From positions 33,414 to 97,413 of the forward strand of contig JAGOBM010000002.1 of assembly GCA_017983435.1 (NCBI GenBank): DNA of 64,000 nucleotides. Reading direction: 5' to 3'. The position numbers and the translations under genes are program-made. Below, one piece after another: positions 4,600 through 25,040 of this stretch. The notes under the pieces were generated by a model, which was not told where the DNA came from, ran no database searches, and saw nothing but the letters and a program-made list of their open reading frames with translations. The stretch is from Candidatus Moraniibacteriota bacterium (GTDB lineage Bacteria > Patescibacteriota > Minisyncoccia > Moranbacterales > UBA1568). The stretch's first letter is position 1. Every line of letters starts with the position of its first letter.

Positions 4600-4917
4600 T
4601 TAATCCCAGCCGAGACGGATCTTGGCATCCTCATTCATTTTCTCCGGGGTCCAGGGCGGATCGAAGACGAGATCGATTTTGGCTTCTTCCACACCGTCGA
4701 TTTCCATGAGGCGATCCTCGATGTCTTTCTGTATGACCGGAAACAAAGGGCAGCCGATCGTGGTGAGAGTCATGGTGATGAGCGCGATGCCTTCCTGGGA
4801 TATCGCGATACCATAGACGAGTCCGAGATCCCAGATGGAAACACCGAGCTCAGGATCCATGACCTGTTTGAGCTTCTCTTGGATCGCGATTTTGAGTTGT
4901 GATGGAGTGTGGGGCAT
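4600..4917 (-). CDS. sufT: SUF-associated DUF59/MIP18-family FeS assembly protein (SufT-like)
   Basis: PSQLKIAIQEKLKQVMDPELGVSIWDLGLVYGIAI...TMTLTTIGCPL is the DUF59 fold signature. It is the last gene of the suf operon; the start was taken at the internal Met (MPHTPS). Confidence 0.7.
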   Translation of the reverse strand: MPHTPSQLKIAIQEKLKQVMDPELGVSIWDLGLVYGIAISQEGIALITMTLTTIGCPLFPVIQKDIEDRLMEIDGVEEAKIDLVFDPPWTPEKMNEDAKIRLGWD

Positions 4918-4929
4918 ACAAAGATAGGG

Positions 4930-5038
4930 AGAATATGGAATAGAGTATAGAGAATAAAGGTTTCTGAAACAATAACCCTCCATTGCGGAGGATTATTGTT
5001 TTTCTTTTCTGTATTCCTTATTCTACATTCTCTATTCT
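4930..5038. repeat. GAATA-rich inverted-repeat element (arms 4930-4956 and 5012-5038) flanking a CCTCC-ATTGC-GGAGG hairpin
   Basis: The arms AGAATATGGAATAGAGTATAGAGAATA and TATTCCTTATTCTACATTCTCTATTCT belong to the same family as elements at eight other loci listed in the findings. It is intercistronic between fdx and sufT. Confidence 0.6.
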
Positions 5039-5044
5039 AGAGAA

Positions 5045-5314
5045 CTATTCTGGGAAAATCTGCTTGCCGGTCTCATCCTTGATGATGATGGCGGCGACCG
5101 GACAGGCCTTGGCGGCGTTCAGAATCGTATCATTATCGTCTTCATCAGCGGTCGAGAGGATGGCGGCCTTTCCGTTCTCGTCGAGAGCAAAGGCTTTCAT
5201 CGCGATCGCGGTACACGGGGCGGCTCCGATGCAGACATTCGATTCAACTTCGACGGTCCAGCCATTCGCGAGCTTTACCGGGCCGTAGGGGCGGGCTTCA
5301 TCTTTCCAAGCCAT
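5045..5314 (-). CDS. fdx: Ferredoxin (small 4Fe-4S/3Fe-4S type)
   Basis: It is 89 aa with CIGAAPC...CP cysteine spacing. It sits inside the suf operon. Confidence 0.7.
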   Translation of the reverse strand: MAWKDEARPYGPVKLANGWTVEVESNVCIGAAPCTAIAMKAFALDENGKAAILSTADEDDNDTILNAAKACPVAAIIIKDETGKQIFPE

Positions 5315-5315
5315 A

Positions 5316-5684
5316 CTATTCTTGTTTACTGTTTACTGCTTTGCTGAATGTTTCCAGGGAGAGGAGGGCACACTTCAAGCGATTCGGAGAGAGCGAGACT
5401 CCTAGTAGAGCGAGGAGACCGTCTGTGTCGAAAGTGCTGGCTTCCGCAATCGTCTTTCCTTTCACGAATTCGGAGAGGAGCGACGCGCTCGCCTGTGAAA
5501 TAGCGCATCCTGAACCGGAAAACTTCACATCGGCAATAATACCATTTTTCACGGAAAGCTGCATCTCAAGCCGATCACCGCAGGTCGGATTGTTGGCCGC
5601 AGCCCGGTGCGTCGGCGCCTTCAGCACGCCCTGATTGCGAGGGTTGCGATAGTGGTCGAGGATGAGGTCTTGGTACAGGCTCAT
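5316..5684 (-). CDS. sufU: SUF FeS cluster scaffold/sulfur-transfer protein SufU (NifU/IscU-like)
   Basis: NPTCGDRLEM...FSGSGCAISQAS...RLKCALL shows the three conserved Cys of SufU/IscU. Confidence 0.8.
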   Translation of the reverse strand: MSLYQDLILDHYRNPRNQGVLKAPTHRAAANNPTCGDRLEMQLSVKNGIIADVKFSGSGCAISQASASLLSEFVKGKTIAEASTFDTDGLLALLGVSLSPNRLKCALLSLETFSKAVNSKQE

Positions 5685-9070: not shown

Positions 9071-9784
9071 TCATATATGGGAGAAGCCTTTCTTCTCGAT
9101 AGCAGCCGCCAATGCTGGACCGCCGGTAGCGACCAGGCAGCCATCTTTGATAACGAGTATTTCATCCGGGCGCATGTATTTGAGCAGCTTGGCCGAGTGA
9201 GTGATGAAGACGAGTGTCGCTTCTTTGGAGAGTGTTTTGCGCAGGAAACCGGTGATAGTCTTCAGGGCATCGACATCGACACCAGTGTCAATCTCATCGA
9301 AGAGGACGAACCGTGGCTCAAGCAGGGCGATCTGGAGCGCCTCGAGCTTCTTCTTTTCTCCTCCGGAAAATCCGTCATTGAGCGAACGTGATAAGAGCTC
9401 GGATTTTATCTTGAGCGCTTCGGCGCCTTCACGGATCTTGGCGTGCAGGGCGAATGGGTCATAGCGTTTCTCGAGCGCGAGCCGGAGGAGGTCCCGGACA
9501 GAGACTCCTTCGAGCGCAAGCGGATTCTGAAACGTCATGCTGATACCGAGCGCTGCCCGCTTGTCCGGCGAGAGCGAACGGAGATTCTTCTGGCCGACGA
9601 GGATCTTGCTCCCGCGGGCGAGCTTGAAGTCCGGGTGGCCCATGATGACGCTCGCGAGCGTCGATTTGCCTGAGCCGTTAGGTCCGAGTATAGCGTAGGT
9701 TTTGCCTGACTTGAAAGCGAAGGAAATGTCGTGGAGTATCTTCTTGCCTTCGATAGATGCGGAGAGGTGTTCGATGGAGAGCAT
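9071..9784 (-). CDS. sufC: FeS assembly ATPase SufC
   Basis: MLSIEHLSASIEGKKILHDISFAFKSGKTYAILGPNGSGKSTL carries Walker A, and LSGGEKKK... carries the ABC signature. The start was set at the internal Met that matches the SufC N-terminus. Confidence 0.9.
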   Translation of the reverse strand: MLSIEHLSASIEGKKILHDISFAFKSGKTYAILGPNGSGKSTLASVIMGHPDFKLARGSKILVGQKNLRSLSPDKRAALGISMTFQNPLALEGVSVRDLLRLALEKRYDPFALHAKIREGAEALKIKSELLSRSLNDGFSGGEKKKLEALQIALLEPRFVLFDEIDTGVDVDALKTITGFLRKTLSKEATLVFITHSAKLLKYMRPDEILVIKDGCLVATGGPALAAAIEKKGFSHI

Positions 9785-9792
9785 AGGGTTGA

Positions 9793-10203
9793 TTACGAAT
9801 GAAGCGTATTGGTAGTTATCTGGTCGAGGGTCATAGCGGACAATGTCATCTCTATTTTCTGTTCGAGCTCTCGCCATACCTGGTTTGTCTGGCAGTGAGT
9901 GAGTTTCGGGTAGGGAGACGCATGGGTGAGTCGGGGCGGGGCGAAGCTCTTCCAGCCACCATCGAGTGTCGAGACGATATCCCAGACGGAGATGGCAGCG
10001 AGCGGTCGGGCTAGGGTGTAGCCGCCATGAGCGCCCTTCTCGGATGAGACGAGGCCCTCGCGCTTGAGGATCTGGAGTATCTTGTGGAGGTATTCCTCGG
10101 GCATATTCTCAGCCAGAGCCATGTCGTGTACGGAAAGCTCGCCCTCGGTCGCGAGTGCGGTGATGGCCCGGAGGCCGTAGTAGGCTTTCTTAGATATGCG
10201 CAT
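9793..10203 (-). CDS. Rrf2-family transcriptional regulator (IscR/SufR-like), first gene of the suf operon
   Basis: MRISKKAYYGLRAITALA...ALAENMPEEYLHKILQILKREGLV is an Rrf2 wHTH. Cys residues lie in the C-terminal half. Confidence 0.8.
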   Translation of the reverse strand: MRISKKAYYGLRAITALATEGELSVHDMALAENMPEEYLHKILQILKREGLVSSEKGAHGGYTLARPLAAISVWDIVSTLDGGWKSFAPPRLTHASPYPKLTHCQTNQVWRELEQKIEMTLSAMTLDQITTNTLHS

Positions 10204-10385
10204 ACTTTGCCTGATATATACCCTTTTTCTATATAGGACCTAATTAGTCCGAATTATAGCAAAATAGGGCCATTTGTCAATATAAGGGCATGAATGACGA
10301 ATATGCTGTAGCGAAGACATATGTATTTTGCTTTTTCGTGGTATTGTGTGAAACTTCAGAGGATGCTGGTGTTTGTAAGAGATAT

Positions 10386-11378
10386 ATGACTTCATATTCA
10401 GGATTTTGGGGAGAATTGAAAAAACCGTTCTTTGTGATGGCGCCGATGGCGGATGTCACTGATGCGGCTTTTCGGCGCATGTTTGCCAAGTACGGCAAGC
10501 CGGATGTGACGTGGACGGAATTCGTTTCGGCCGACGGACTCTGTCATCCGGAGGGGCGATTGGCGATGCTCGGGGATCTCGGATATACCGAGGCGGAACG
10601 TCCGATCGTCGCGCAGGTGTTTACTGCTCATCCGGACAAGATGCGAGAATCGGCCCGGATCATCCTCGGTCTCGGTTTCGATGGTATCGATATTAATATG
10701 GGGTGTCCGGATAAGAACGTGATGAAGCAGGGCGCCGGCGCCAAACTCATGCAGGATCCGGCTCTGGCTCGGTCTCTCGTCGCTGCGGCCAAGGAGGGAG
10801 TTGAGGGAAAAATCCCCGTCTCAGTGAAAACGAGGATCGGTTTCAATAAGGATGAGCTCGATGTGTGGCTCCCAGAACTGCTATCCGAGCGACCGGCAGC
10901 GATTACGGTGCATGCGAGGACCAAGAAAGAGATGTCGCTGGTTCCGGCCCGCTGGGAGTATGTGGCCCAAGCAGTCGAGCTCGCGCGCGGCACCGGCGTG
11001 CTCATCATCGGCAATGGCGATGTACGGAGTATGGAGGAAGCGCGACAGCGGGTTGCAGAGACGGGCTGTGATGGGGTAATGATCGGACGGGGACTCTTCG
11101 GGAATCCGTGGTTTTTTTCCGAGCAGGAAGTATCTCTTGATGAGCGTCTCCGGGCTCTTATCGAGCATACCGAACTGTATGAATCATTGTTCTCCGGTCA
11201 GAAGAGCTTCGAAATCATGAAGAAACATTACAAGGCCTATGCGCATGGATTCGACGGAGCGCACGGGCTGCGTGCGGCGCTGATGGAATGCCACGATGCG
11301 CCGTCGGTTCGAGAGCGGGTCGAGGATTTTCTCCTGCATCGGGCAGCTGCAGCGATTGACAAGCCGCCGCTCGACTGA
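10386..11378 (+). CDS. tRNA-dihydrouridine synthase (Dus family, FMN TIM barrel)
   Basis: FVMAPMADVTDAAFRRMF...INMGCPDKNVMKQGAGAKLM...VKTRIG match Dus. The start was chosen at the ATG at 10386. Confidence 0.85.
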   Translation: MTSYSGFWGELKKPFFVMAPMADVTDAAFRRMFAKYGKPDVTWTEFVSADGLCHPEGRLAMLGDLGYTEAERPIVAQVFTAHPDKMRESARIILGLGFDGIDINMGCPDKNVMKQGAGAKLMQDPALARSLVAAAKEGVEGKIPVSVKTRIGFNKDELDVWLPELLSERPAAITVHARTKKEMSLVPARWEYVAQAVELARGTGVLIIGNGDVRSMEEARQRVAETGCDGVMIGRGLFGNPWFFSEQEVSLDERLRALIEHTELYESLFSGQKSFEIMKKHYKAYAHGFDGAHGLRAALMECHDAPSVRERVEDFLLHRAAAAIDKPPLD

Positions 11379-11421
11379 TACGATGGCCGGTCTTGTTCTT
11401 TGGAGAAGAGAGGAGGGAAAT

Positions 11422-11886
11422 ATGGCTCGGATACGGACGACGACTTCTAGTCGGACACTCGGGAATATCGATACGCTTTTTCGGGAGACCAAAGTGATTC
11501 TCGTGGTCATACAGAAAAGGCGGTTTTTCATCGCTCATCGTTCGGGAGAATTGGTCCGGCAGCCCGAGTGGCTGGCCCTCCGGCACTTCACGGATGTGCT
11601 CCATGCGAGGAGACTCAATCGGAAGAAGCACGGTCAGGCCTATGCGGACTTCGTGTTCGGCTGTATCGACTGGGCATTGCAGCCGTTTCCGGATTGGAAA
11701 GGCGATATGCATTCTTTCGTACGGCACCTCGAGTACCTGCTGAACCGGAAATCTGATGGTGTCTACCGGTATCGGTCGGATCTCGAGATGTTTTTCATCC
11801 GATTGCGCAACAAGCTGCGCGAACGGCTGGCCAATGCGCGTAGACAGCAGCGGGCTGCGCGCCTGGAGGCGATACGGATCGCATAA
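11422..11886 (+). CDS. Hypothetical Arg-rich protein (154 aa)
   Basis: The ATG at 11422 is preceded by an AGGAGGG RBS. No family was recognised. Confidence 0.45.
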   Translation: MARIRTTTSSRTLGNIDTLFRETKVILVVIQKRRFFIAHRSGELVRQPEWLALRHFTDVLHARRLNRKKHGQAYADFVFGCIDWALQPFPDWKGDMHSFVRHLEYLLNRKSDGVYRYRSDLEMFFIRLRNKLRERLANARRQQRAARLEAIRIA

Positions 11887-14704: not shown

Positions 14705-15469
14705 ATGGAACATTTTTGGCAACGCATCAATCCCGTATTGACCCTGGTATTCCGAGGACACGATATCTGTGCGGACACGCTCGGCCGATGGTATGGGTCT
14801 GTCAAGTGGGGTATCCTGATCGCCGCTCATTTCACGCTGCTTATCTTGTTCGTACCGGAGCTCGCCGTCTTCCGGAAAGGAGCGGGCGAGCTCGCAGCCA
14901 ATCTCCTGATCGCGCTCCTGTTCCTGAGTCCGATCGCGACGATATTCCGGATGCGTCTCCTTTCGCTCGGCATGGGATTGCGGCGGGAAATCGGCATACT
15001 CATGGGCTACCTGGCCGTCGTGCATGGAGTCGGATATATGACCGATCCTCAATTCTTCACGTTGTTCATCGCGGAGCATCTCGGAGCGGGAATCGTATCG
15101 ATGGATACGAGTATCCTGGTCGGGATCATCGGTCTAATCCTGACGCTGCCGCTCCTCGTCACCTCCAACGCTTTCTCGATGCGGCGGCTCGGAGGGAAAA
15201 ATTGGAAAAGACTGCACCGTCTCGTCTATCCGGCCTTCCTTTTTATCGTCTTGCATCGGTTTTTCCAGGTCGGAGGATCCTGGCAGGAGGTCGGACCGTT
15301 CATTGAAGCGGGTGTGCTGATCGGTATTTACACACTTCTCAAATATCTTGCTTGGAAGCCGACGGCTTGGCCGTGGTTGCGCTGGATCGTCGGTCAGATA
15401 GGCGCGCGCTATGCTACGTATCGGCAGGCGAGAGGAGCTCATGCGATCAGTCATTCAGATCTAAAATAA
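14705..15469 (+). CDS. Ferric-reductase-like transmembrane protein (MsrQ/YedZ-like heme-binding membrane subunit)
   Basis: It has six predicted TM helices with His residues in TM helices (VVHGVGY; LHRLVYPAFLFIVLHRF). Confidence 0.55.
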   Translation: MEHFWQRINPVLTLVFRGHDICADTLGRWYGSVKWGILIAAHFTLLILFVPELAVFRKGAGELAANLLIALLFLSPIATIFRMRLLSLGMGLRREIGILMGYLAVVHGVGYMTDPQFFTLFIAEHLGAGIVSMDTSILVGIIGLILTLPLLVTSNAFSMRRLGGKNWKRLHRLVYPAFLFIVLHRFFQVGGSWQEVGPFIEAGVLIGIYTLLKYLAWKPTAWPWLRWIVGQIGARYATYRQARGAHAISHSDLK

Positions 15470-18286: not shown

Positions 18287-18676
18287 TAGTGGAGTTGATG
18301 GGAATTGCACCCATGTCCAGTCACGTTTTTCCAAAATATTCTACAAGCGTAGTCTGCTTTAGGTCCCTTCCTCTCTATGAAACAGACGAAAGAGAGCGGA
18401 AGACTGGTCTTCTGCAAAAGGCGATCGGAGGAGAAAGACGAGAAGAAAATCTCCGGACCTTCCCGAAGTATGACACCGGCGGTTCTCTATCGGGAGTCGA
18501 GGAGCCGATGGTCCGCGCGAATTAGGCGCGGGCGAAAGCGAAAGACGGAGCGAACGCCGAAGCGAACGTGGCCTTGGCCTTTGGGATGAAGTTTGCACTT
18601 ATCGGTTGATGGAAGTTTTTACGATCGTACCATCATGATCGGCTTGCCTATTTTGAAAGTACGCCCTGTCGAGTCT
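18287..18676 (-). ncRNA. ssrA: tmRNA (transfer-messenger RNA, SsrA)
   Basis: The minus-strand 5-prime end GGGGUUGUUUAGACUCGACAGGG and 3-prime end GGACAUGGGUGCAAUUCCCAUCAACUCCA(CUA) closely parallel E. coli GGGGCUGAUUCUGGAUUCGACGGG...GGACGCGGGUUCAACUCCCGCCAGCUCCACCA. The acceptor stem GGGGUUG/CAACUCC keeps the G3:U wobble. A resume-codon context UAAGU-GCA-AAC and an Ala-rich tag frame ending in UAA lie on plus 18522-18596. The gene is directly downstream of smpB. Confidence 0.8.
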
Positions 18677-18772
18677 AAACAACCCCATACCATCAAGGAT
18701 GATGGAAATTCCAAATTCCAAAGCCCAAATTCCCAGCGGAATTGTAGAGTTTGGATCTTAGAATCTGAAGAA

Positions 18773-19222
18773 CTACCGGTGATCCCTCATCGCTCGCTCG
18801 ATACGCCGCTTCGCTTCCCGTTCACCGATATCGGAACGCTTGTCATACTCCTTTTTTCCCTTTGCTAGAGCGAATTCGAGCTTCACAAGTTGTTTCTGAG
18901 TATACAATCGAATAGGGACCAATGTCAAGCCTTGGACGCGGGATTTTCCAATCAGGGAGCGGATTTCCGAGCGATGGAGGAGGAGCTTGCGCGAACGGGT
19001 ATCCTCATGCTTCGTGTCTTTGTGAGCGTGAGCGTAGCGCGGAATCAGGGCATTGGTCAGGAAGAGCTCATTGCCACGGGCCGTCACAAAGGCTCCTTTG
19101 AGGCTGACGTGGCCGGTTTTGACTGACTTCACCTCGCTGCCGGACAGGACGATGCCCGCCACATACCGATCGAGGAGGGCGTAATCATAGGAAGCTCTGC
19201 GATTGAAAGCGAGATCCTTCAT
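18773..19222 (-). CDS. smpB: SsrA-binding protein SmpB
   Basis: NRRASYDYALLDRYVAGIVLSGSEVKS...GLTLVPIRLY match the SmpB consensus. Confidence 0.9.
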   Translation of the reverse strand: MKDLAFNRRASYDYALLDRYVAGIVLSGSEVKSVKTGHVSLKGAFVTARGNELFLTNALIPRYAHAHKDTKHEDTRSRKLLLHRSEIRSLIGKSRVQGLTLVPIRLYTQKQLVKLEFALAKGKKEYDKRSDIGEREAKRRIERAMRDHR

Positions 19223-19321
19223 AGAAGGCAGTGTAGCGCGAAATAGCCGGTACCAACAAAAAAATCGAGATATATCCCGACCGTTCTTATATTATACACC
19301 AAAACAGTATATTGTGCAACA

Positions 19322-19349
19322 GTTGGAAATCCATAGATATATGGTATAA
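19322..19349 (+). promoter_or_regulatory. Putative sigma70-type promoter with an extended -10 (TTGGAA, 16 nt, TGgTATAAT)
   Basis: It was read in the AT-rich region upstream of the secreted repeat-protein gene. The -35 matches 4 of 6 and the -10 is perfect. Confidence 0.4.
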
Positions 19350-19394
19350 TTTTTGCAAATAGAAGTATAAATAAAAAGCTTGATAATCACGTAT

Positions 19395-20444
19395 ATGCAA
19401 AGAGGCAAGAAACTACTCATGATGACCCTGCTCTTGGTAGCTGGGTTCGTGGTGGGGGTGCAGGTAATCAAGGCGGGGAATTCGCAGAATACGATCGGTT
19501 GGCTCTGGGGTGGGATGAATGCGACGAGTGGTGGCAATACGTCTTTGGGTTGGGTCAGTATGAATAGCCGGGATTGTGATGCGGATGGAAATGGGACGGT
19601 CGACGTGGCTGGCTGTCCGGCGGGTGCGATTCCAGACTACGGGGTCAATGTGCCGCTTTCGGATGGTGCTGTGAGGGGGTATGGTTGGAGCGAGAATTAT
19701 GGCTGGCTGTCTTTCAATGCGGCTGATGTCGCTGGCTGCCCAGTGGGCGGTTGTAGCGCGCAGCGTGTCGGCAATGCCCTGACCGGCTGGGCGCGCGTCC
19801 TCTCGATCCGTGATGCGGCGGCCAATAGCGGTGGCTGGAGCGGATATGTTTCGTTGGACTCCGGTACGACCGGGAGCGGGGTGCCTTACGGGGTTACTGT
19901 GGCGGGGAATATTATTTCGGGCTATGCCTGGTCGGATGAGCTTGGTTGGATTGATTTTGGTCGTGCCCGCATACAGCCGGGGAATAGTTTGAAAATCTGC
20001 CGTGATAGCTGCAATAGCGGTATCCTTCGCGGAAGCCAGTCGGCAGCCGGAAGCAATACGATGGGGACGGGAGCTGTAGAGAGTCTTGTAGCGTGTTGGA
20101 ATTCAGATGTGGCATGCGGTATGGCTGGGGCTTCGGTGCCGGCGACGTGGGCGGAGAGCGGATCAGCCGCAGTGGGACTGTCCGGACCGGATACTCTGAA
20201 GACCGTCACAGCCAATGCGGTCGGATCGGAATCAGTCACGGCGACCTATGTCGGACAGACGGCTACGCTCAACGTCTCGGTGATCTGTGTGCCGCTGGTC
20301 TGTGGAGCAGTTACAAAGGCGGTGACGGATACCTATTGTCCGGATGCGACCCAGGATACCGGTGTATCGGATAACTGCGGTGGGACGCTGACCTGCCCGG
20401 GGACCCGCTATTGCGATACGAATTACAAAGAAGTGCAGCCGTAA
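19395..20444 (+). CDS. Secreted or cell-surface repeat protein with three G[WY]xWSxxxGW[ILV]xF motifs
   Basis: It has a signal peptide (MQRGKKLLMMTLLLVAGFVVGVQVIKA). The repeats are GWLWGG...LGWVSMNS, GYGWSENYGWLSFNA and GYAWSDELGWIDFGRA. The protein is Gly/Ser/Ala-rich with C-terminal Cys pairs. Confidence 0.7.
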   Translation: MQRGKKLLMMTLLLVAGFVVGVQVIKAGNSQNTIGWLWGGMNATSGGNTSLGWVSMNSRDCDADGNGTVDVAGCPAGAIPDYGVNVPLSDGAVRGYGWSENYGWLSFNAADVAGCPVGGCSAQRVGNALTGWARVLSIRDAAANSGGWSGYVSLDSGTTGSGVPYGVTVAGNIISGYAWSDELGWIDFGRARIQPGNSLKICRDSCNSGILRGSQSAAGSNTMGTGAVESLVACWNSDVACGMAGASVPATWAESGSAAVGLSGPDTLKTVTANAVGSESVTATYVGQTATLNVSVICVPLVCGAVTKAVTDTYCPDATQDTGVSDNCGGTLTCPGTRYCDTNYKEVQP

Positions 20445-20542
20445 TACACAGAGAGATAGAGCGGCTAGAGACAAAGAGCGATAGGGGGATAAGAGGGATG
20501 ATAGAGAATGCTTAAATAATTTGAGTATAAAAACAAAAACAT

Positions 20543-20884
20543 ATGACTCTGGAGCAGAATCATCCGAATCTGAAAAAACTCTTGGTATTCTTTCTGGTAG
20601 TGTTCGTAATCCTGGTCGGATTGGCCGGGTTGAAAGTGTATCTCGATGTATCGAAGTCGCCAGAGACGCCGGTGATGCAGGATGGCGGAGCACCTACGGG
20701 TCGTCTGACTGAGGCGGATATAGAGCAGCAGCTTGAAGCTTTGAATGTCGGAGATGATCCGAATAAGCACCCAACCGCGGCGGAAATGGAGAAACAGCTT
20801 GAAACCTTGAATGCTGGAGATGATACCGCCAAGCGCCCGACGGAAGCAGAAATCAGACAACAGCTTGAAGCTTTGAATCAGTAG
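20543..20884 (+). CDS. Small N-terminally membrane-anchored protein with 22-aa tandem repeats (EADIEQQLEALNVGDDPNKHPT)
   Basis: It has one TM helix followed by two and a half copies of a 22-aa acidic helical repeat. Confidence 0.6.
   Translation: MTLEQNHPNLKKLLVFFLVVFVILVGLAGLKVYLDVSKSPETPVMQDGGAPTGRLTEADIEQQLEALNVGDDPNKHPTAAEMEKQLETLNAGDDTAKRPTEAEIRQQLEALNQ
20711..20881 (+). repeat. Tandem 66-bp coding repeat, about 2.6 copies
   Basis: Units at 20711-20776, 20777-20842 and 20843-20881 have near-identical cores, CAGCTTGAAGCTTTGAATG and CAGCTTGAAACCTTGAATG. Confidence 0.7.
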
Positions 20885-20921
20885 AAATACTTAAAAAATT
20901 ATAAAGTTTTAACACACGTGT

Positions 20922-21485
20922 ATGCATCAGCTCTTGCGAGGTAGTCTCTACTGGGGAAAAGTCATTTCACTCGGTGTCATTCTCGGCGTCGGGATACAGT
21001 TCGCAGAAGCCTGGACCAACCCGACCGCTTCGGCCCCGGGTGGCAATATCGCTGGACCCTTGAATACCGGAGTCATCAATCAAGTGAAGAACGCTTCTTT
21101 GGGATTGGTAGGCAATCTGGCTGCCAATATGCTCCAGATCAACGGTGTAGCGACGGAAGGAGCAGCGTGCAGCTCTACCGGACTGGTAGCTCGGGATACC
21201 GGCGGAGTGATTCTGTCGTGTCAGTCGGGGGCGTGGAGGAAGGGGATGGGGGGGGGTGGACTTGGTACATCGCGGATGATTACGGCACCTACGGGGACAG
21301 CTACCACCAGTGTAACGTGTGCGTCTGATGAAGTTGTGACGAGCTGTGTATTGCGAAATCCAACGGCGGTGGGAGGAGTTTACTCCTCCTCTATTTCGGG
21401 AAAAACGTGTAGGTCAACTACTACCGAGGCAGATTTTAGTGATCGCCTGGCGTCAGGTCCGCTCATGGCTACTTGTGTCAAGTAA
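20922..21485 (+). CDS. Secreted hypothetical protein (signal peptide, Gly/Thr/Ser-rich, 7 Cys)
   Basis: It has an N-terminal hydrophobic segment with AEA followed by W. No family was recognised. Confidence 0.55.
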   Translation: MHQLLRGSLYWGKVISLGVILGVGIQFAEAWTNPTASAPGGNIAGPLNTGVINQVKNASLGLVGNLAANMLQINGVATEGAACSSTGLVARDTGGVILSCQSGAWRKGMGGGGLGTSRMITAPTGTATTSVTCASDEVVTSCVLRNPTAVGGVYSSSISGKTCRSTTTEADFSDRLASGPLMATCVK

Positions 21486-21510
21486 TTTTGACAATGGAAA
21501 TATGTGAAGC

Positions 21511-21548
21511 TAAACACTCTTCCTTCATAGGGGAAGAGTGTTTCTTTA
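21511..21548 (+). terminator. Rho-independent terminator
   Basis: AAACACTCTTCC-TTCATAGG-GGAAGAGTGTTT has a perfect 12-bp stem followed by CTTTAT. Confidence 0.65.
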
Positions 21549-21682
21549 TGCTGGGGAGGTTGGCTTTTAGGCTCATATGCGCTACGATAGGTGGGTATGC
21601 CCGGTAGTAGAACTTCGAAAATTTCAGACACCGAGTTTTTACAAAGTTATGTTTTAGGGAGAAAAGGGTAAATTATTTTTTC

Positions 21683-23359
21683 TTGGAAGAGACTTCCCTA
21701 TTCGAAGTTTCACTGCCGGGTATGAAAACAACTCTAGCGCAAGCGATACAGGGAGCGATCGAGGGATTGATCCGGACGGGTCAGCTGCCTCTATTCGATC
21801 TGCCTTGCATCCAGGTGGAGCGTCCGAAGGATGAACAGTTCGGCGAATATACGTCGAATATCGCTTTGATCGCAGCCAAAATAGTCGGCAAGAATCCGAG
21901 AGAATTGGCGGAGCTGATCAAAGAACAATTAACAATTAACAATCAACAAGAAACATTCTTCGAAAAAATCGAAGTCGCTGGTCCGGGGCATCTCAATCTC
22001 TATCTGGCGCAGTCGGTACTCGGCGGTGTCGTGGAAACTATCGCAGCGCGACAGGATCAGTACGGGGCATCAGATCAGGGAGCAGGCCAGTCCGTGAACA
22101 ACGAATTCGTCTCGGCCAATCCGACCGGCCCGCTGCATCTCGGCAATGGCCGCGGGGGATTCTTTGGCGATACGCTCTCGCACATCCTGCGCAAGGCGGG
22201 ATACGCCGTAACGAATGAATACTATGTGAACGATGCCGGCGAGCAAGTGCTGAAGCTCGGGCATAGCGTCCTCAAGGACGAGGAGGCGGTATATGGAGGA
22301 GAATATATTGAAACGCTCCATGAGCGTTTCAAACAACAAACAACAAACAACAAACAACAAGATGGGGAAGGTGTAGTGAGGGAAACAGGCGAGTGGGCGG
22401 CGGAATATATTCTCACACATTTCATCCAGCCGACGCTCAAGGATCAGATGCGGATTACGTTCGATGTCTTCACTTCGGAAAAGCAAGAAATAATCGAGCG
22501 TGGGTATGTCGAGAAAGCCCTGGAGATTTTCAAGGAGAAGCAGCTTTCGTTCGAGACGGACGGCGCACTCTGGCTCAAGACGACCGCTTTCGGCGATGAC
22601 AAAGATCGAGTGCTCGTGAAGGGCGATGGGACGAAGACATACTTCGCGTCCGATTGCGGCTATATCCTCTCCAAGATGGAGCGCGGCTTTACACGGCTTA
22701 TCCTCACGCTCGGAGCGGATCATCACGGCTATCGGGCCCGGATCGAAGCAGCAGCACAGGCGCTCGGATTTGTCGGCCGTTTCGATTTTGTCTTCGTCCA
22801 GCTGGTCCGCCTCATGAAAGACGGCCAGGAAGTGCGGATGAGCAAGCGGGCGGGCAATGTCGTCTCGATCGACGAGCTGATCGAGCGGGTCGGACCGGAT
22901 GTCGCACGCTTCTTCTTTCTCGTGTACAGCCCCGATACGCATATGAACTTTGATCTCGGACTGGCAGAAGAGCGGTCACAGAAGAACCCGGTCTACTATG
23001 TGCAGTACGCGCATGCTCGGCTGGCCAGCGTGCTAGCCAAAGCGGCGGAGGCCGGACTCGATCCGGATCGCGGCGATGTCACTCTGCTCCAGGACCCGAA
23101 GGAGCGCCTGCTCCTCGCTGAGCTCCTCTCATTCCCGGATTTGATCTTGGATACGGCCGAGGATTATGCCGTCCATCGGCTGCCTCAGTATGCTATCCGT
23201 CTGGCTGACCGGCTGCACTCTTTCTATGATGCCTGCCGGGTCATCGATACCGAACAGCCAGCGATGTCTGAGGCTCGCCTGAGGCTCGTGAAAAGTGCTA
23301 AAATAGTCTTGAGTGAGACACTTCGTCTCATAGGTGTTACTGCTCCGGAAAAGATGTAG
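21683..23359 (+). CDS. argS: Arginyl-tRNA synthetase
   Basis: SANPTGPLHLGNGRGG is the HIGH-region variant, and MSKRAGNVV the KMSK variant. It contains two in-frame simple-sequence stretches (INNQQ; QQTTNNKQQ). Confidence 0.9.
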   Translation: MEETSLFEVSLPGMKTTLAQAIQGAIEGLIRTGQLPLFDLPCIQVERPKDEQFGEYTSNIALIAAKIVGKNPRELAELIKEQLTINNQQETFFEKIEVAGPGHLNLYLAQSVLGGVVETIAARQDQYGASDQGAGQSVNNEFVSANPTGPLHLGNGRGGFFGDTLSHILRKAGYAVTNEYYVNDAGEQVLKLGHSVLKDEEAVYGGEYIETLHERFKQQTTNNKQQDGEGVVRETGEWAAEYILTHFIQPTLKDQMRITFDVFTSEKQEIIERGYVEKALEIFKEKQLSFETDGALWLKTTAFGDDKDRVLVKGDGTKTYFASDCGYILSKMERGFTRLILTLGADHHGYRARIEAAAQALGFVGRFDFVFVQLVRLMKDGQEVRMSKRAGNVVSIDELIERVGPDVARFFFLVYSPDTHMNFDLGLAEERSQKNPVYYVQYAHARLASVLAKAAEAGLDPDRGDVTLLQDPKERLLLAELLSFPDLILDTAEDYAVHRLPQYAIRLADRLHSFYDACRVIDTEQPAMSEARLRLVKSAKIVLSETLRLIGVTAPEKM

Positions 23360-24328: not shown

Positions 24329-24350
24329 AATATTTTTTTTGAGACGAGTT

Positions 24351-25040
24351 ATGGACAAGAAACAGCATGAAGATCTGGTCGCCTCGCTGGCAGACCCCAA
24401 GGTTCTTTTGGAATACGACCGTGTTTTCGATGATTTTCGTGTGAGCTGGCTTCCGAAAATCTTGGGACAGCTCTTGGTGAGTACTGGAAACTTGGTATTC
24501 GGAAAAGAACCTTCATATGGGAAGTTCAAGGCGGTCGAAGTGATTGCCCGGATCCCGTACCAATCGTGGGAGGTGGCGAGCTATATGCTCCTGACGATGT
24601 TTTACTCGAATGAGCAGCGAGCTATAGAATTGTCGCAGACCTCGCGCTTCGGGCGGAGCGCGCAGGACAATGAGACGATGCACGTGGTGGTACTGAGTCA
24701 GTTGGCCCAGAAATACGGAGAAGACAGTCTGATCAGGCATACGTTTATTCCGCTCGCGTTCTCTTTCTTCTACTTCGCAGCGTCTTTTGTGCTCTATCTC
24801 TTCAGTCCGCGCTCGGCGTTGGAACTCAACTATTTGTTTGAGAGCCATGCGTTTGAGCAGTACAGCCGCTTCTTAGAGTTGCGTGGTGAAGAATTGAAGC
24901 GGAAGCCCGTCATGCTTGATTTTCTGGAATTCTATGGCCGGCACGTGAAGAGTGAGTACGAATTGTTTCAATCGATCCGTGCAGATGAGATCATCCATCG
25001 CAATGTTTCGGCCCGTCGGGCTGAAGAGTATGGTGTATAG
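24351..25040 (+). CDS. Alternative-oxidase-like diiron carboxylate protein (AOX/PTOX family)
   Basis: Four diiron motifs occur in AOX order: EVIARIPYQSW (Glu 1), NETMHVVV (resembles NERMHL, ExxH), ESHAFEQY (resembles EEEAIHSY), RADEIIHRN (resembles RADEAHHR). Confidence 0.6.
   Translation: MDKKQHEDLVASLADPKVLLEYDRVFDDFRVSWLPKILGQLLVSTGNLVFGKEPSYGKFKAVEVIARIPYQSWEVASYMLLTMFYSNEQRAIELSQTSRFGRSAQDNETMHVVVLSQLAQKYGEDSLIRHTFIPLAFSFFYFAASFVLYLFSPRSALELNYLFESHAFEQYSRFLELRGEELKRKPVMLDFLEFYGRHVKSEYELFQSIRADEIIHRNVSARRAEEYGV

Follow-up and report, generated by a model that had tools for sequence, protein, structure and literature searches.

The stretch analysed here, hereafter the window, covers 64,000 nucleotides of contig JAGOBM010000002.1 (assembly GCA_017983435.1, positions 33,414 to 97,413 of the forward strand) from a Candidatus Moraniibacteriota bacterium. 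In this window, a trio of genes for predicted surface proteins is situated between smpB and argS, and its members recur as neighbours across Patescibacteria. An initial annotation had placed three genes in this gap, and this is borne out by the open reading frame (ORF) list, in which three plus-strand ORFs fill the space, and by the NCBIfam assignments of both flanking genes. The ORFs, referred to as gene 1 (G1), gene 2 (G2) and gene 3 (G3), encode products with 100% identity to the metagenome-assembled genome (MAG) entries MBP5993498-500 at NCBI; G1 (MBP5993498, locus tag KA731_01180) carries the NCBI name 'hypothetical protein'. G1 and G3 have Sec-type signals and G2 a transmembrane (TM) segment, as judged by simple Kyte-Doolittle hydropathy and the -3/-1 rule, in agreement with the initial view that the products are extracytoplasmic or membrane-anchored. 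Export of G1 and G3 is supported by these signals together with the even cysteine counts of the mature proteins (14 and 6, respectively) and the immunoglobulin (Ig)-like domains of G1, a type known from surface proteins. The initial annotation had also found no nameable family; this holds for G1 and G2, which match none in Pfam, NCBIfam, PHROGs or PDB, and fails for G3, which has a partial match to Shufflon_N.

The trio is bounded by its own candidate control signals (Table 1). The promoter proposed earlier (TTGGAA, 16 nt, TGgTATAAT) is present in the sequence and, in a consensus scan, matches 10 of 12 consensus positions plus the TG; its function is only putative, and the region as a whole holds five promoter-like sites against 4.0 +/- 2.2 in shuffles, i.e., no enrichment. 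The TATGGTATAAT block (TGnTATAAT) of this site is unchanged in the closest relative, locus L007, where intergenic identity is ~75% overall and the -35 hexamer is not kept. The same intergenic region contains a divergent promoter-like site for smpB, both hexamer regions of which are kept in L007. The terminator proposed downstream of G3 likewise exists as a stable hairpin (-22.4 kcal/mol, z-score -2.8), followed by a weak T-tract (CTTTAT). The G1-G2 intergenic region (20445-20542) is strongly purine-rich and contains a short imperfect repeat, GATAGAGGGAT, in 2.6 copies at 20480-20506; the last ~30 nt upstream of the G2 start (AAAAACAAAA.CATATG) are kept in L007 and may represent a translation-initiation or internal promoter element.

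The G1 protein is modular. Its signal peptide has an RGKK n-region, a hydrophobic core (Kyte-Doolittle 2.5) and a predicted cleavage site IKA↓G; residues 3-23 are helical in the AlphaFold2 (AF2) model, and A or G at position -1 is conserved across the alignment. In the N-terminal domain, which we term GW-hairpin, the hairpins follow in the order GWLWGG..GWVSMN / YGV..GYGWSENYGWLSF / GWARVLSI..GGWSGYVSL / YGV..GYAWSDELGWIDF, and alignments yield the consensus scheme [GW..GWxS] + [YGVxI..GYAWSxxxGWIxF], occurring twice. The three motif copies counted in the initial annotation are an approximation, as G1 contains two strict copies (GYGWSENYGWLSF and GYAWSDELGWIDF) and two degenerate ones (GWLWGG...LGWVSMN and GWARVLSI...GGWSGYVSL). 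Across the G1 family, the N-terminal ~165 residues are conserved and are followed by variable domains. AlphaFold modeling of full-length G1 from a 36-sequence alignment (predicted local distance difference test, pLDDT, 85.5) gave a signal helix, a beta-rich N-domain, two Ig-like sandwiches and a small Cys-rich end.

When the whole G1 model was compared with PDB using Foldseek, the Ig part alone was matched. Its matches include LigA Big_2 (E 6.4e-4, probability 1.0), Big_2-CBM56 (22% identity), titin Ig and the S-layer proteins EA1 and SbsC. Pfam Big_3 scores 13.5 bits on G1 against a threshold of 21.2, and relatives carry Big_2 above threshold; as modelled, the middle region belongs to the bacterial Ig-like (Big_2/Big_3) fold. 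The GW-hairpin domain modelled alone by AF2 reached pLDDT 89.1 and a predicted template modelling score of 0.85. Foldseek searches with this model returned no significant match in PDB (best E 0.22, TM-score below 0.4) and no fold match in BFVD, the domain profile matched no PDB sequence, and the domain matched nothing in Pfam or NCBIfam; even at E up to 1, scanning G1 against Pfam gave nothing except the sub-threshold Big_3. The initial guess of a beta-propeller or beta-helix therefore finds no support in this confident model.

To assess the extent of the family, several sequence collections were searched. Among 5.8 billion proteins, 457 G1 relatives were found, all annotated as 'hypothetical', and those with named sources come from Moranbacteria. 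A GTDB scan with one genome per species identified 367 relatives, labelled as Patescibacteria MAGs save for a few odd pipeline labels and spread over Moran-, Pace- and Kaiserbacteria and other Patescibacteria. A HMMER scan of 1.84 billion cluster representatives (50% identity) detected 7,714 GW-hairpin clusters at E up to 1e-3, of which 4,304 reach E 1e-10 or better. GW-hairpin is a large family without annotation in the Pfam and NCBIfam copies used, and the earlier description of the locus as lineage-specific does not stand against these numbers and the recurrence of the trio. In some family members, 4-8 GW-hairpin units are followed by PKD, fn3, CARDB or Ig domains. The larger Patescibacteria proteins P0155, P0162 and P0189 contain 7-8 tandem units and then Ig or PKD domains, and no Pfam family covers the GW region of P0155 or P0162. 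The middle domains of the G1 family swap among Ig/Big_2, Fib_succ_major, TSP1 and Cys-rich types, with the N-domain and a C-terminal tail kept.

The tail conforms to [WYF]-x-E-[VITA]-x-P with at most three residues after it, and ends 96 of the 120 best homologs whatever their middle domains. Its common form is (N/G)-W-x-E-V-x-P-COOH; distant members end in the acidic-hydrophobic ...FEEF or ...PKWEEVPI. For context, 80 loci from the scan that found the 367 G1 relatives were fetched, which contain 2,443 ORFs of at least 80 residues. All 43 occurrences of the motif among these ORFs lie on G1-domain proteins, and within G1 proteins the motif is found internally just 5 times in 33,792 residues. As the tail is confined to G1-domain proteins, the N-domain and the tail are coupled, family-specific ends. 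A general sorting signal should also occur on other proteins, and none of those among the 2,443 ORFs carries the motif; a docking peptide, a processing tag and a sorting tag are candidate roles of the tail. There is no TM segment after the tail, and it is therefore not a signal of the LPXTG or PEP-CTERM type; window G1 itself, ending in ...GTRYCDTNYKEVQP-COOH, has no LPXTG-like motif and no hydrophobic window after residue 310 by hydropathy, and 96 of 120 homologs agree with it in this. In P0189, the sequence LPKWKEIPP is followed by ~20 more residues, partly hydrophobic, a hint that a processing site may have given rise to the terminal tail or that the tail may act as one.

G2 is a small protein without cysteine, in which KK precedes one strong TM segment (Kyte-Doolittle 2.85). 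The 66-bp tandem repeat reported initially is real: Tandem Repeats Finder detects it at 20729-20878 with period 66, 2.3 copies and 77% matches, and it encodes three copies of the 13-residue helix motif T-E-A-[DE]-I-x-Q-Q-L-E-A-L-N. An iterative search of the fetched loci recovered G2-like proteins adjoining G1. They have 105-135 residues, a single TM segment and an N-terminus that is short and basic, and the best of them show an ectodomain of three (S/T)xEE(I/V)xxQL(E/D)xL helices with Pro-rich linkers in between. Three repeats are present in the closest relatives, L007 among them, and a crude regular-expression count over the 33 retained family members gave 0-4.

G3 combines a near-constant N-terminus with a changing remainder. 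The predicted cleavage site of window G3 is AEA↓W, and 47 family members share the context A/G↓W after a hydrophobic core, which is of the Sec/signal-peptidase I type. The family N-terminus reads as a signal peptide ending in A/G↓W and then WTxPTxxPPxGNxxxP(I/L)N...Q, with the W, two P and the N invariant across 29 aligned members. The first 66 residues of window G3 are 76% identical to those of L007 G3 and the remainder is unrelated; P0122-P0128 likewise share the N-terminus and differ in the rest. More distant members have Peptidase_S74 (5.6e-11), PHROG tail-fibre matches or a Hint domain, as well as weak Peptidase_G2 and T7 tail-fibre matches. The family follows the constant-N/variable-C design of receptor-binding fibres. 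A profile search with the G3 N-terminus alone returned only 20 short fragments of less than 100 residues, which are uninformative on the size of the family and its architectures. phmmer paired G3 with a carrot allergen, Dau c 1 (E 0.0015), a match dismissed as Gly/Thr-rich low-complexity sequence.

Table 1. Coordinates of the trio, its flanking genes and signals, and candidate fourth neighbours (window positions unless a locus is named).
Feature	Position	Strand	Details
smpB	18773-19222	-	NCBIfam equivalog, far over cut-off
smpB promoter-like site	19291-19318	-	TGCACA, 16 nt, TATAAT; divergent
Trio promoter-like site	19323-19350	+	TTGGAA 19323-19328, 16-nt spacer, extended -10 TGgTATAAT 19342-19350
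G1	19395-20444	+	349 aa from ATG (NCBI form); alternative TTG 19380 gives 354 aa
G1 predicted Sec-type signal peptide	19395-19475	+	aa 1-27, MQRGKK-LLMMTLLLVAGFVVGV-QVIKA↓G
G1 N-terminal GW-hairpin domain	19479-19982	+	aa 29-196; four aromatic beta-hairpins, internal duplication
G1 middle region, two Ig-like beta-sandwich domains	19986-20285	+	aa 198-297; AF2 pLDDT > 90
G1 C-terminal Cys-rich module	20286-20441	+	6 Cys; ends in tail ...CDTNYKEVQP-COOH (tail 20421-20441)
G2	20543-20884	+	113 aa
G2 TM segment	20579-20638	+	aa 13-32; predicted N-in/C-out single-pass
G2 66-bp tandem repeat	20702-20878	+	three 45-nt cores, encoding TEADIEQQLEALN / TAAEMEKQLETLN / TEAEIRQQLEALN
G3	20922-21485	+	187 aa
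G3 predicted signal peptide	20922-21011	+	aa 1-30
G3 constant mature N-terminus	21012-21119	+	aa 31-66, WTNPTASAPGGNIAGPLNTGVINQVKNASLGLVGNL
G3 shufflon-PilV-like Cys loop	21081-21230	+	aa 54-103
G3 C-terminal part			aa 104-187; Cys-containing
Terminator-like hairpin closing the trio	21512-21543	+	14-bp stem, 4-nt loop
argS	21683-23359	+	NCBIfam equivalog, far over cut-off
Fourth-neighbour candidate, L002	6820-7356
Fourth-neighbour candidate, L017	9664-10167
Fourth-neighbour candidate, L020	9704-10252
Fourth-neighbour candidate, L031	8930-9706

To analyze the genomic context of the trio, two hidden Markov models (HMMs), one of the G1 domain and one of the G3 N-terminus, were applied to the 50 testable G1 loci, i.e., those with at least 3 kb on both flanks. 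A G3-family gene was found within 3 kb of G1 in 40 of these loci, always on the same strand (40/40), 25 times downstream and 15 times upstream. Up to 1 kb from G1, the density of G3 genes is 3.8 per 10 kb; at distances above 3 kb, it is at most 0.17 per 10 kb. In all-against-all clustering of neighbours, the G3 family (59 loci) was the sole recurrent non-housekeeping neighbour. The other recurrent neighbours, smpB, argS, infC and rplT, reflect Moranbacteria synteny; smpB adjoins G1-family genes in 10 loci, and argS is nearby in 10. G2 was sought separately with an HMM under a strict filter, and its counts are lower bounds on account of the short, biased, low-complexity sequence: at least 20 of the 50 loci have a G2-family gene beside G1, and 19 hold the complete trio. 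The order of the genes differs between loci (123, 13, 31, 321, 231 and others), with strand and proximity kept. A possible fourth recurrent neighbour, a protein of ~170-260 residues that starts with a TM segment and has a beta-rich domain at its C-terminus, stands next to the trio in at least six loci (examples in Table 1); the window has none.

Considering this co-localization pattern and the domain architectures, we think it somewhat probable that the trio is a conserved cell-surface attachment module of Patescibacteria (candidate phyla radiation, CPR), in which three extracytoplasmic proteins form or serve one unit. The target of attachment would be a host cell or a substrate. G3 would be the Sec-exported fibre or adhesin subunit: cleavage at A-x-A↓W would expose its constant proline-rich N-terminus as the probable docking end, and the C-terminal part, in the window a small disulfide-looped PilV-like domain, would be the exchangeable, target-binding end. 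G1 would act as the conserved adaptor or anchor, built of the GW-hairpin domain, an Ig-like stalk, a small Cys-rich knob and the tail peptide. The GW-hairpin domain may be the binding or anchoring module; its candidate targets are either the cell envelope or termini that contain proline, like the one of G3. G2 could serve as a membrane tether or assembly factor, whose three short amphipathic helices would hold G1 and G3 or help to assemble them; three repeats would suit a trimeric fibre. The G3 proline-rich terminus, the G1 tail and the Trp/Tyr-rich hairpins together suggest docking of a peptide in an aromatic groove. The analysis establishes the export-type signals, the gene structure, the domain make-up, the size and taxonomic spread of the families and their conserved neighbourhood; the physical interaction of the three proteins, the polarity of docking and the adhesive function are proposed from sequences and models.

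A more far-reaching version of the attachment module strikes us as rather unlikely, namely a Patescibacteria-specific fibre system free of pilins and sortases, with G1 binding proline-containing termini, G2 tethering a trimeric base and a G3 tip that sets the host. Here the GW-hairpin domain would capture the mature N-terminus of G3, the tail of another G1 (which would give head-to-tail chains), or both. The G2 helices would tether the trimeric base at the membrane, and the exchangeable G3 tip would decide the host cell to which the episymbiont attaches.

Parts of the trio resemble known systems. Like phage tail fibres and the R64 shufflon PilV, G3 proteins join near-identical N-terminal 60-70 residues to unrelated C-terminal domains; some end in the same Peptidase_S74 chaperone as tail fibres, and window G3 has the small C...C loop found at the end of the PilV constant region. 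In contrast to both, G3 is predicted to be Sec-exported, is not a pilin, has no DNA-inversion shufflon and no phage or plasmid location, and has, instead of a tail-attachment domain, a short proline-rich peptide as its constant part. G1 recalls the aromatic hairpin anchors, i.e., choline-binding (CW_binding_1) repeats, the GW modules of Listeria InlB and Ami, and SLH or CWB2 triplets, a likeness drawn from established knowledge and not a claim of homology. It shares with them repeated beta-hairpins (G-[WY]-x-W-S-x3-G-W-I-x-F) at one end of otherwise variable proteins, which are found in 4-8 tandem copies in some proteins. It shows no sequence match to CW_binding_1, SLH, CWB2, LysM or SH3b/GW at E up to 1 and no Foldseek match to solved structures, and the predicted secondary structure indicates that its hairpins pack into a compact ~165-residue domain with an internal duplication and not into an open solenoid. 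With the fibrillar adhesins of monoderms, G1 has in common a signal peptide, a Big_2-like Ig stalk and conserved terminal modules; it differs in that it has no LPXTG motif, hydrophobic segment or charged tail (it ends in ...NYKEVQP with no TM segment after it), is short, has two Ig domains only, and comes with two dedicated partner genes.

Several observations weigh against the attachment-module reading. A nearby G3 is missing from 10 of the 50 G1 loci (20%; these G1 genes do not lack the tail as well), and G2 was detected in 40% of loci (a lower bound). A binding role for GW-hairpin, a domain with no known relative, is proposed by analogy to aromatic hairpin repeats and N-terminal anchors. 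In L007, where the order is rplT-infC-smpB-G1-G2-...-argS, unrelated genes occupy the slot after G2 and the G3 gene is 2.5 kb away, upstream, so strict operon coupling is not required. The L007 slot holds two unrelated ORFs of 375 and 295 residues (9363-11436), function unassigned, and the G3-family gene of that locus (4604-5353) has a different C-terminal domain. This arrangement suggests a cassette-like replacement of the fibre gene in L007, and as G3 is found there at another place and with another C-terminal domain, the fibre gene is mobile and exchangeable relative to G1-G2.

The conserved neighbourhood could reflect co-regulation of independent surface proteins and not a complex, an alternative that we regard as possible, if doubtful. 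On this account, G1 would be wall-bound or S-layer-associated through GW-hairpin, G2 an unrelated small membrane protein, and G3 a free secreted adhesin or lectin, all sharing no more than neighbourhood and regulation. The variable gene order and the G1 genes without G3 agree with it, as do the housekeeping genes that separate G3 from G1-G2 in L007, the tandem GW-hairpin copies joined to PKD, fn3 and CARDB in the manner of wall-binding repeats, and the presence of EA1 and SbsC among the matches of the Ig part. It is harder to reconcile with the enrichment of G3 within 1 kb of G1, which is strong, strand-specific and extends to relatives of ~36% identity, with the family-restricted G1 tail, and with the Pfam result that G1 matches no SLH, CWB2, LysM or CW_binding_1; the conserved peptide ends on G1 and G3 point instead to specific docking partners.

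That the trio goes back to a phage tail-fibre cassette (receptor-binding protein, adaptor and chaperone), now domesticated or degraded and kept as a chromosomal remnant or decoy, appears very unlikely, even though G3 relatives carry Peptidase_S74 and PHROG tail-fibre matches and Big_2 Ig-like domains are common on phage structural proteins. The window proteins all have predicted Sec or TM signals, which are absent from phage tail proteins, none has a significant PHROG match, and BFVD holds no fold match for the G1 domain. The trio is surrounded by housekeeping genes with no phage genes nearby, its placement relative to smpB, tmRNA and argS shows conserved synteny, and the GC content does not deviate. 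The trio is not a foreign island, and a prophage or other foreign origin was ruled out by gene context, composition and PHROGs.

Still less probable is a reading in which the locus serves a type IV pilus and G3 is its tip adhesin, equivalent to the PilV of shufflons. Pfam PF04917 (Shufflon_N) matches G3 residues 54-103 with 33 bits, above its gathering score of 27.5, and NCBI names the protein (MBP5993500) 'shufflon system plasmid conjugative transfer pilus tip adhesin PilV', presumably owing to this match; in one relative, L002, a T2SSE/PilB-like ATPase lies ~3 kb from the trio. The match, however, is confined to profile positions 274-324, the last 50 of 324, with the remainder of the profile absent from a protein of just 187 residues, and the NCBIfam scan gave no PilV match. 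In place of a prepilin leader, G3 has a Sec signal: MHQLLRGSLYWGKVISLGVILGVGIQFAEA↓WTNPT contains no G↓F/M-T-L-x-E motif and no Glu at +5. No sfx-like inverted repeats, silent or alternative C-terminal cassettes or Rci recombinase were found at the locus; the interval 19200-21700 holds two weak inverted pairs only (16-17 nt, 81-82% complementary), and G3 is followed by the terminator and argS. No pil genes occur among the neighbouring ORFs scanned, and the context is not that of a plasmid or of conjugation. As leader, context and shufflon features all fail, the PilV identity was rejected; the NCBI label is an over-annotation that will propagate.

The weakest alternative, which we find scarcely credible, makes G2 a contingency gene in which a surface stalk becomes longer or shorter as copies of the head-to-tail, in-frame 66-bp repeat are gained or lost, in line with the initial suggestion of a variable copy number. 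At 73-76% identity, however, the DNA copies have diverged too far for slippage to be efficient, and the closest relatives have three helix repeats too. The exact 113-residue protein is found on six contigs, the 7 contigs and both members of its 90% cluster all give that length, and the few contigs available thus show no variation in length. Given the diverged copies and the uniform length, the repeat reads as an old structural feature.

The wider surroundings of the trio in the window include rpmI, infC, tmRNA, smpB, argS, a histidine phosphatase, a class I aminoacyl-tRNA synthetase (most likely isoleucyl-tRNA synthetase), recO and others. The tmRNA gene is full length (18287-18686, minus strand; Rfam RF00023, 110.8 bits, E 2e-42) and lies directly downstream of smpB; unlike this Rfam match, ARAGORN reported neither tmRNA nor tRNA across the whole window. 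An alternative-oxidase-like di-iron protein (24339-25040, plus strand; Pfam AOX, E 1.1e-10) and a ferric-reductase-like membrane protein (14705-15469, plus strand; Ferric_reduct, E 1.6e-12) are also encoded near the trio. Respiratory chains are usually absent from CPR genomes.

To our knowledge, type IV pili are so far the sole well-studied candidates for the means by which most Patescibacteria outside cultivated Saccharibacteria recognise and hold their hosts. In the literature on pili, surface proteins and adhesins of Moranbacteria and Patescibacteria, no description of the G1-G3 families was found. A study of Paceibacteria that parasitise methanogens lists highly expressed signal-peptide proteins, with no sequences that could be mapped to the trio (PMC10936435). 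In kind, the locus of the window would be a surface adhesin or fibre locus made of undescribed parts; it is not an artefact, and present evidence does not make it a categorically new mechanism. A domain family that is large and unannotated is paired here with a fibre protein that differs in its tip between close relatives. A small trio of this sort, predicted to be autonomously transcribed and conserved in hundreds of species-level genomes, matches what one would expect of a host-recognition device. For annotation, two points follow: G3 is mislabelled as a plasmid PilV, and Pfam and NCBIfam lack a domain family that spans more than 7,000 clusters. The proteins also provide short, clonable targets for determining the GW-hairpin structure with candidate peptide ligands, for localisation and for host-range comparison. 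The locus would gain in interest if the docking or polymerisation model, or a part played in the host specificity of episymbiotic Patescibacteria, were borne out.

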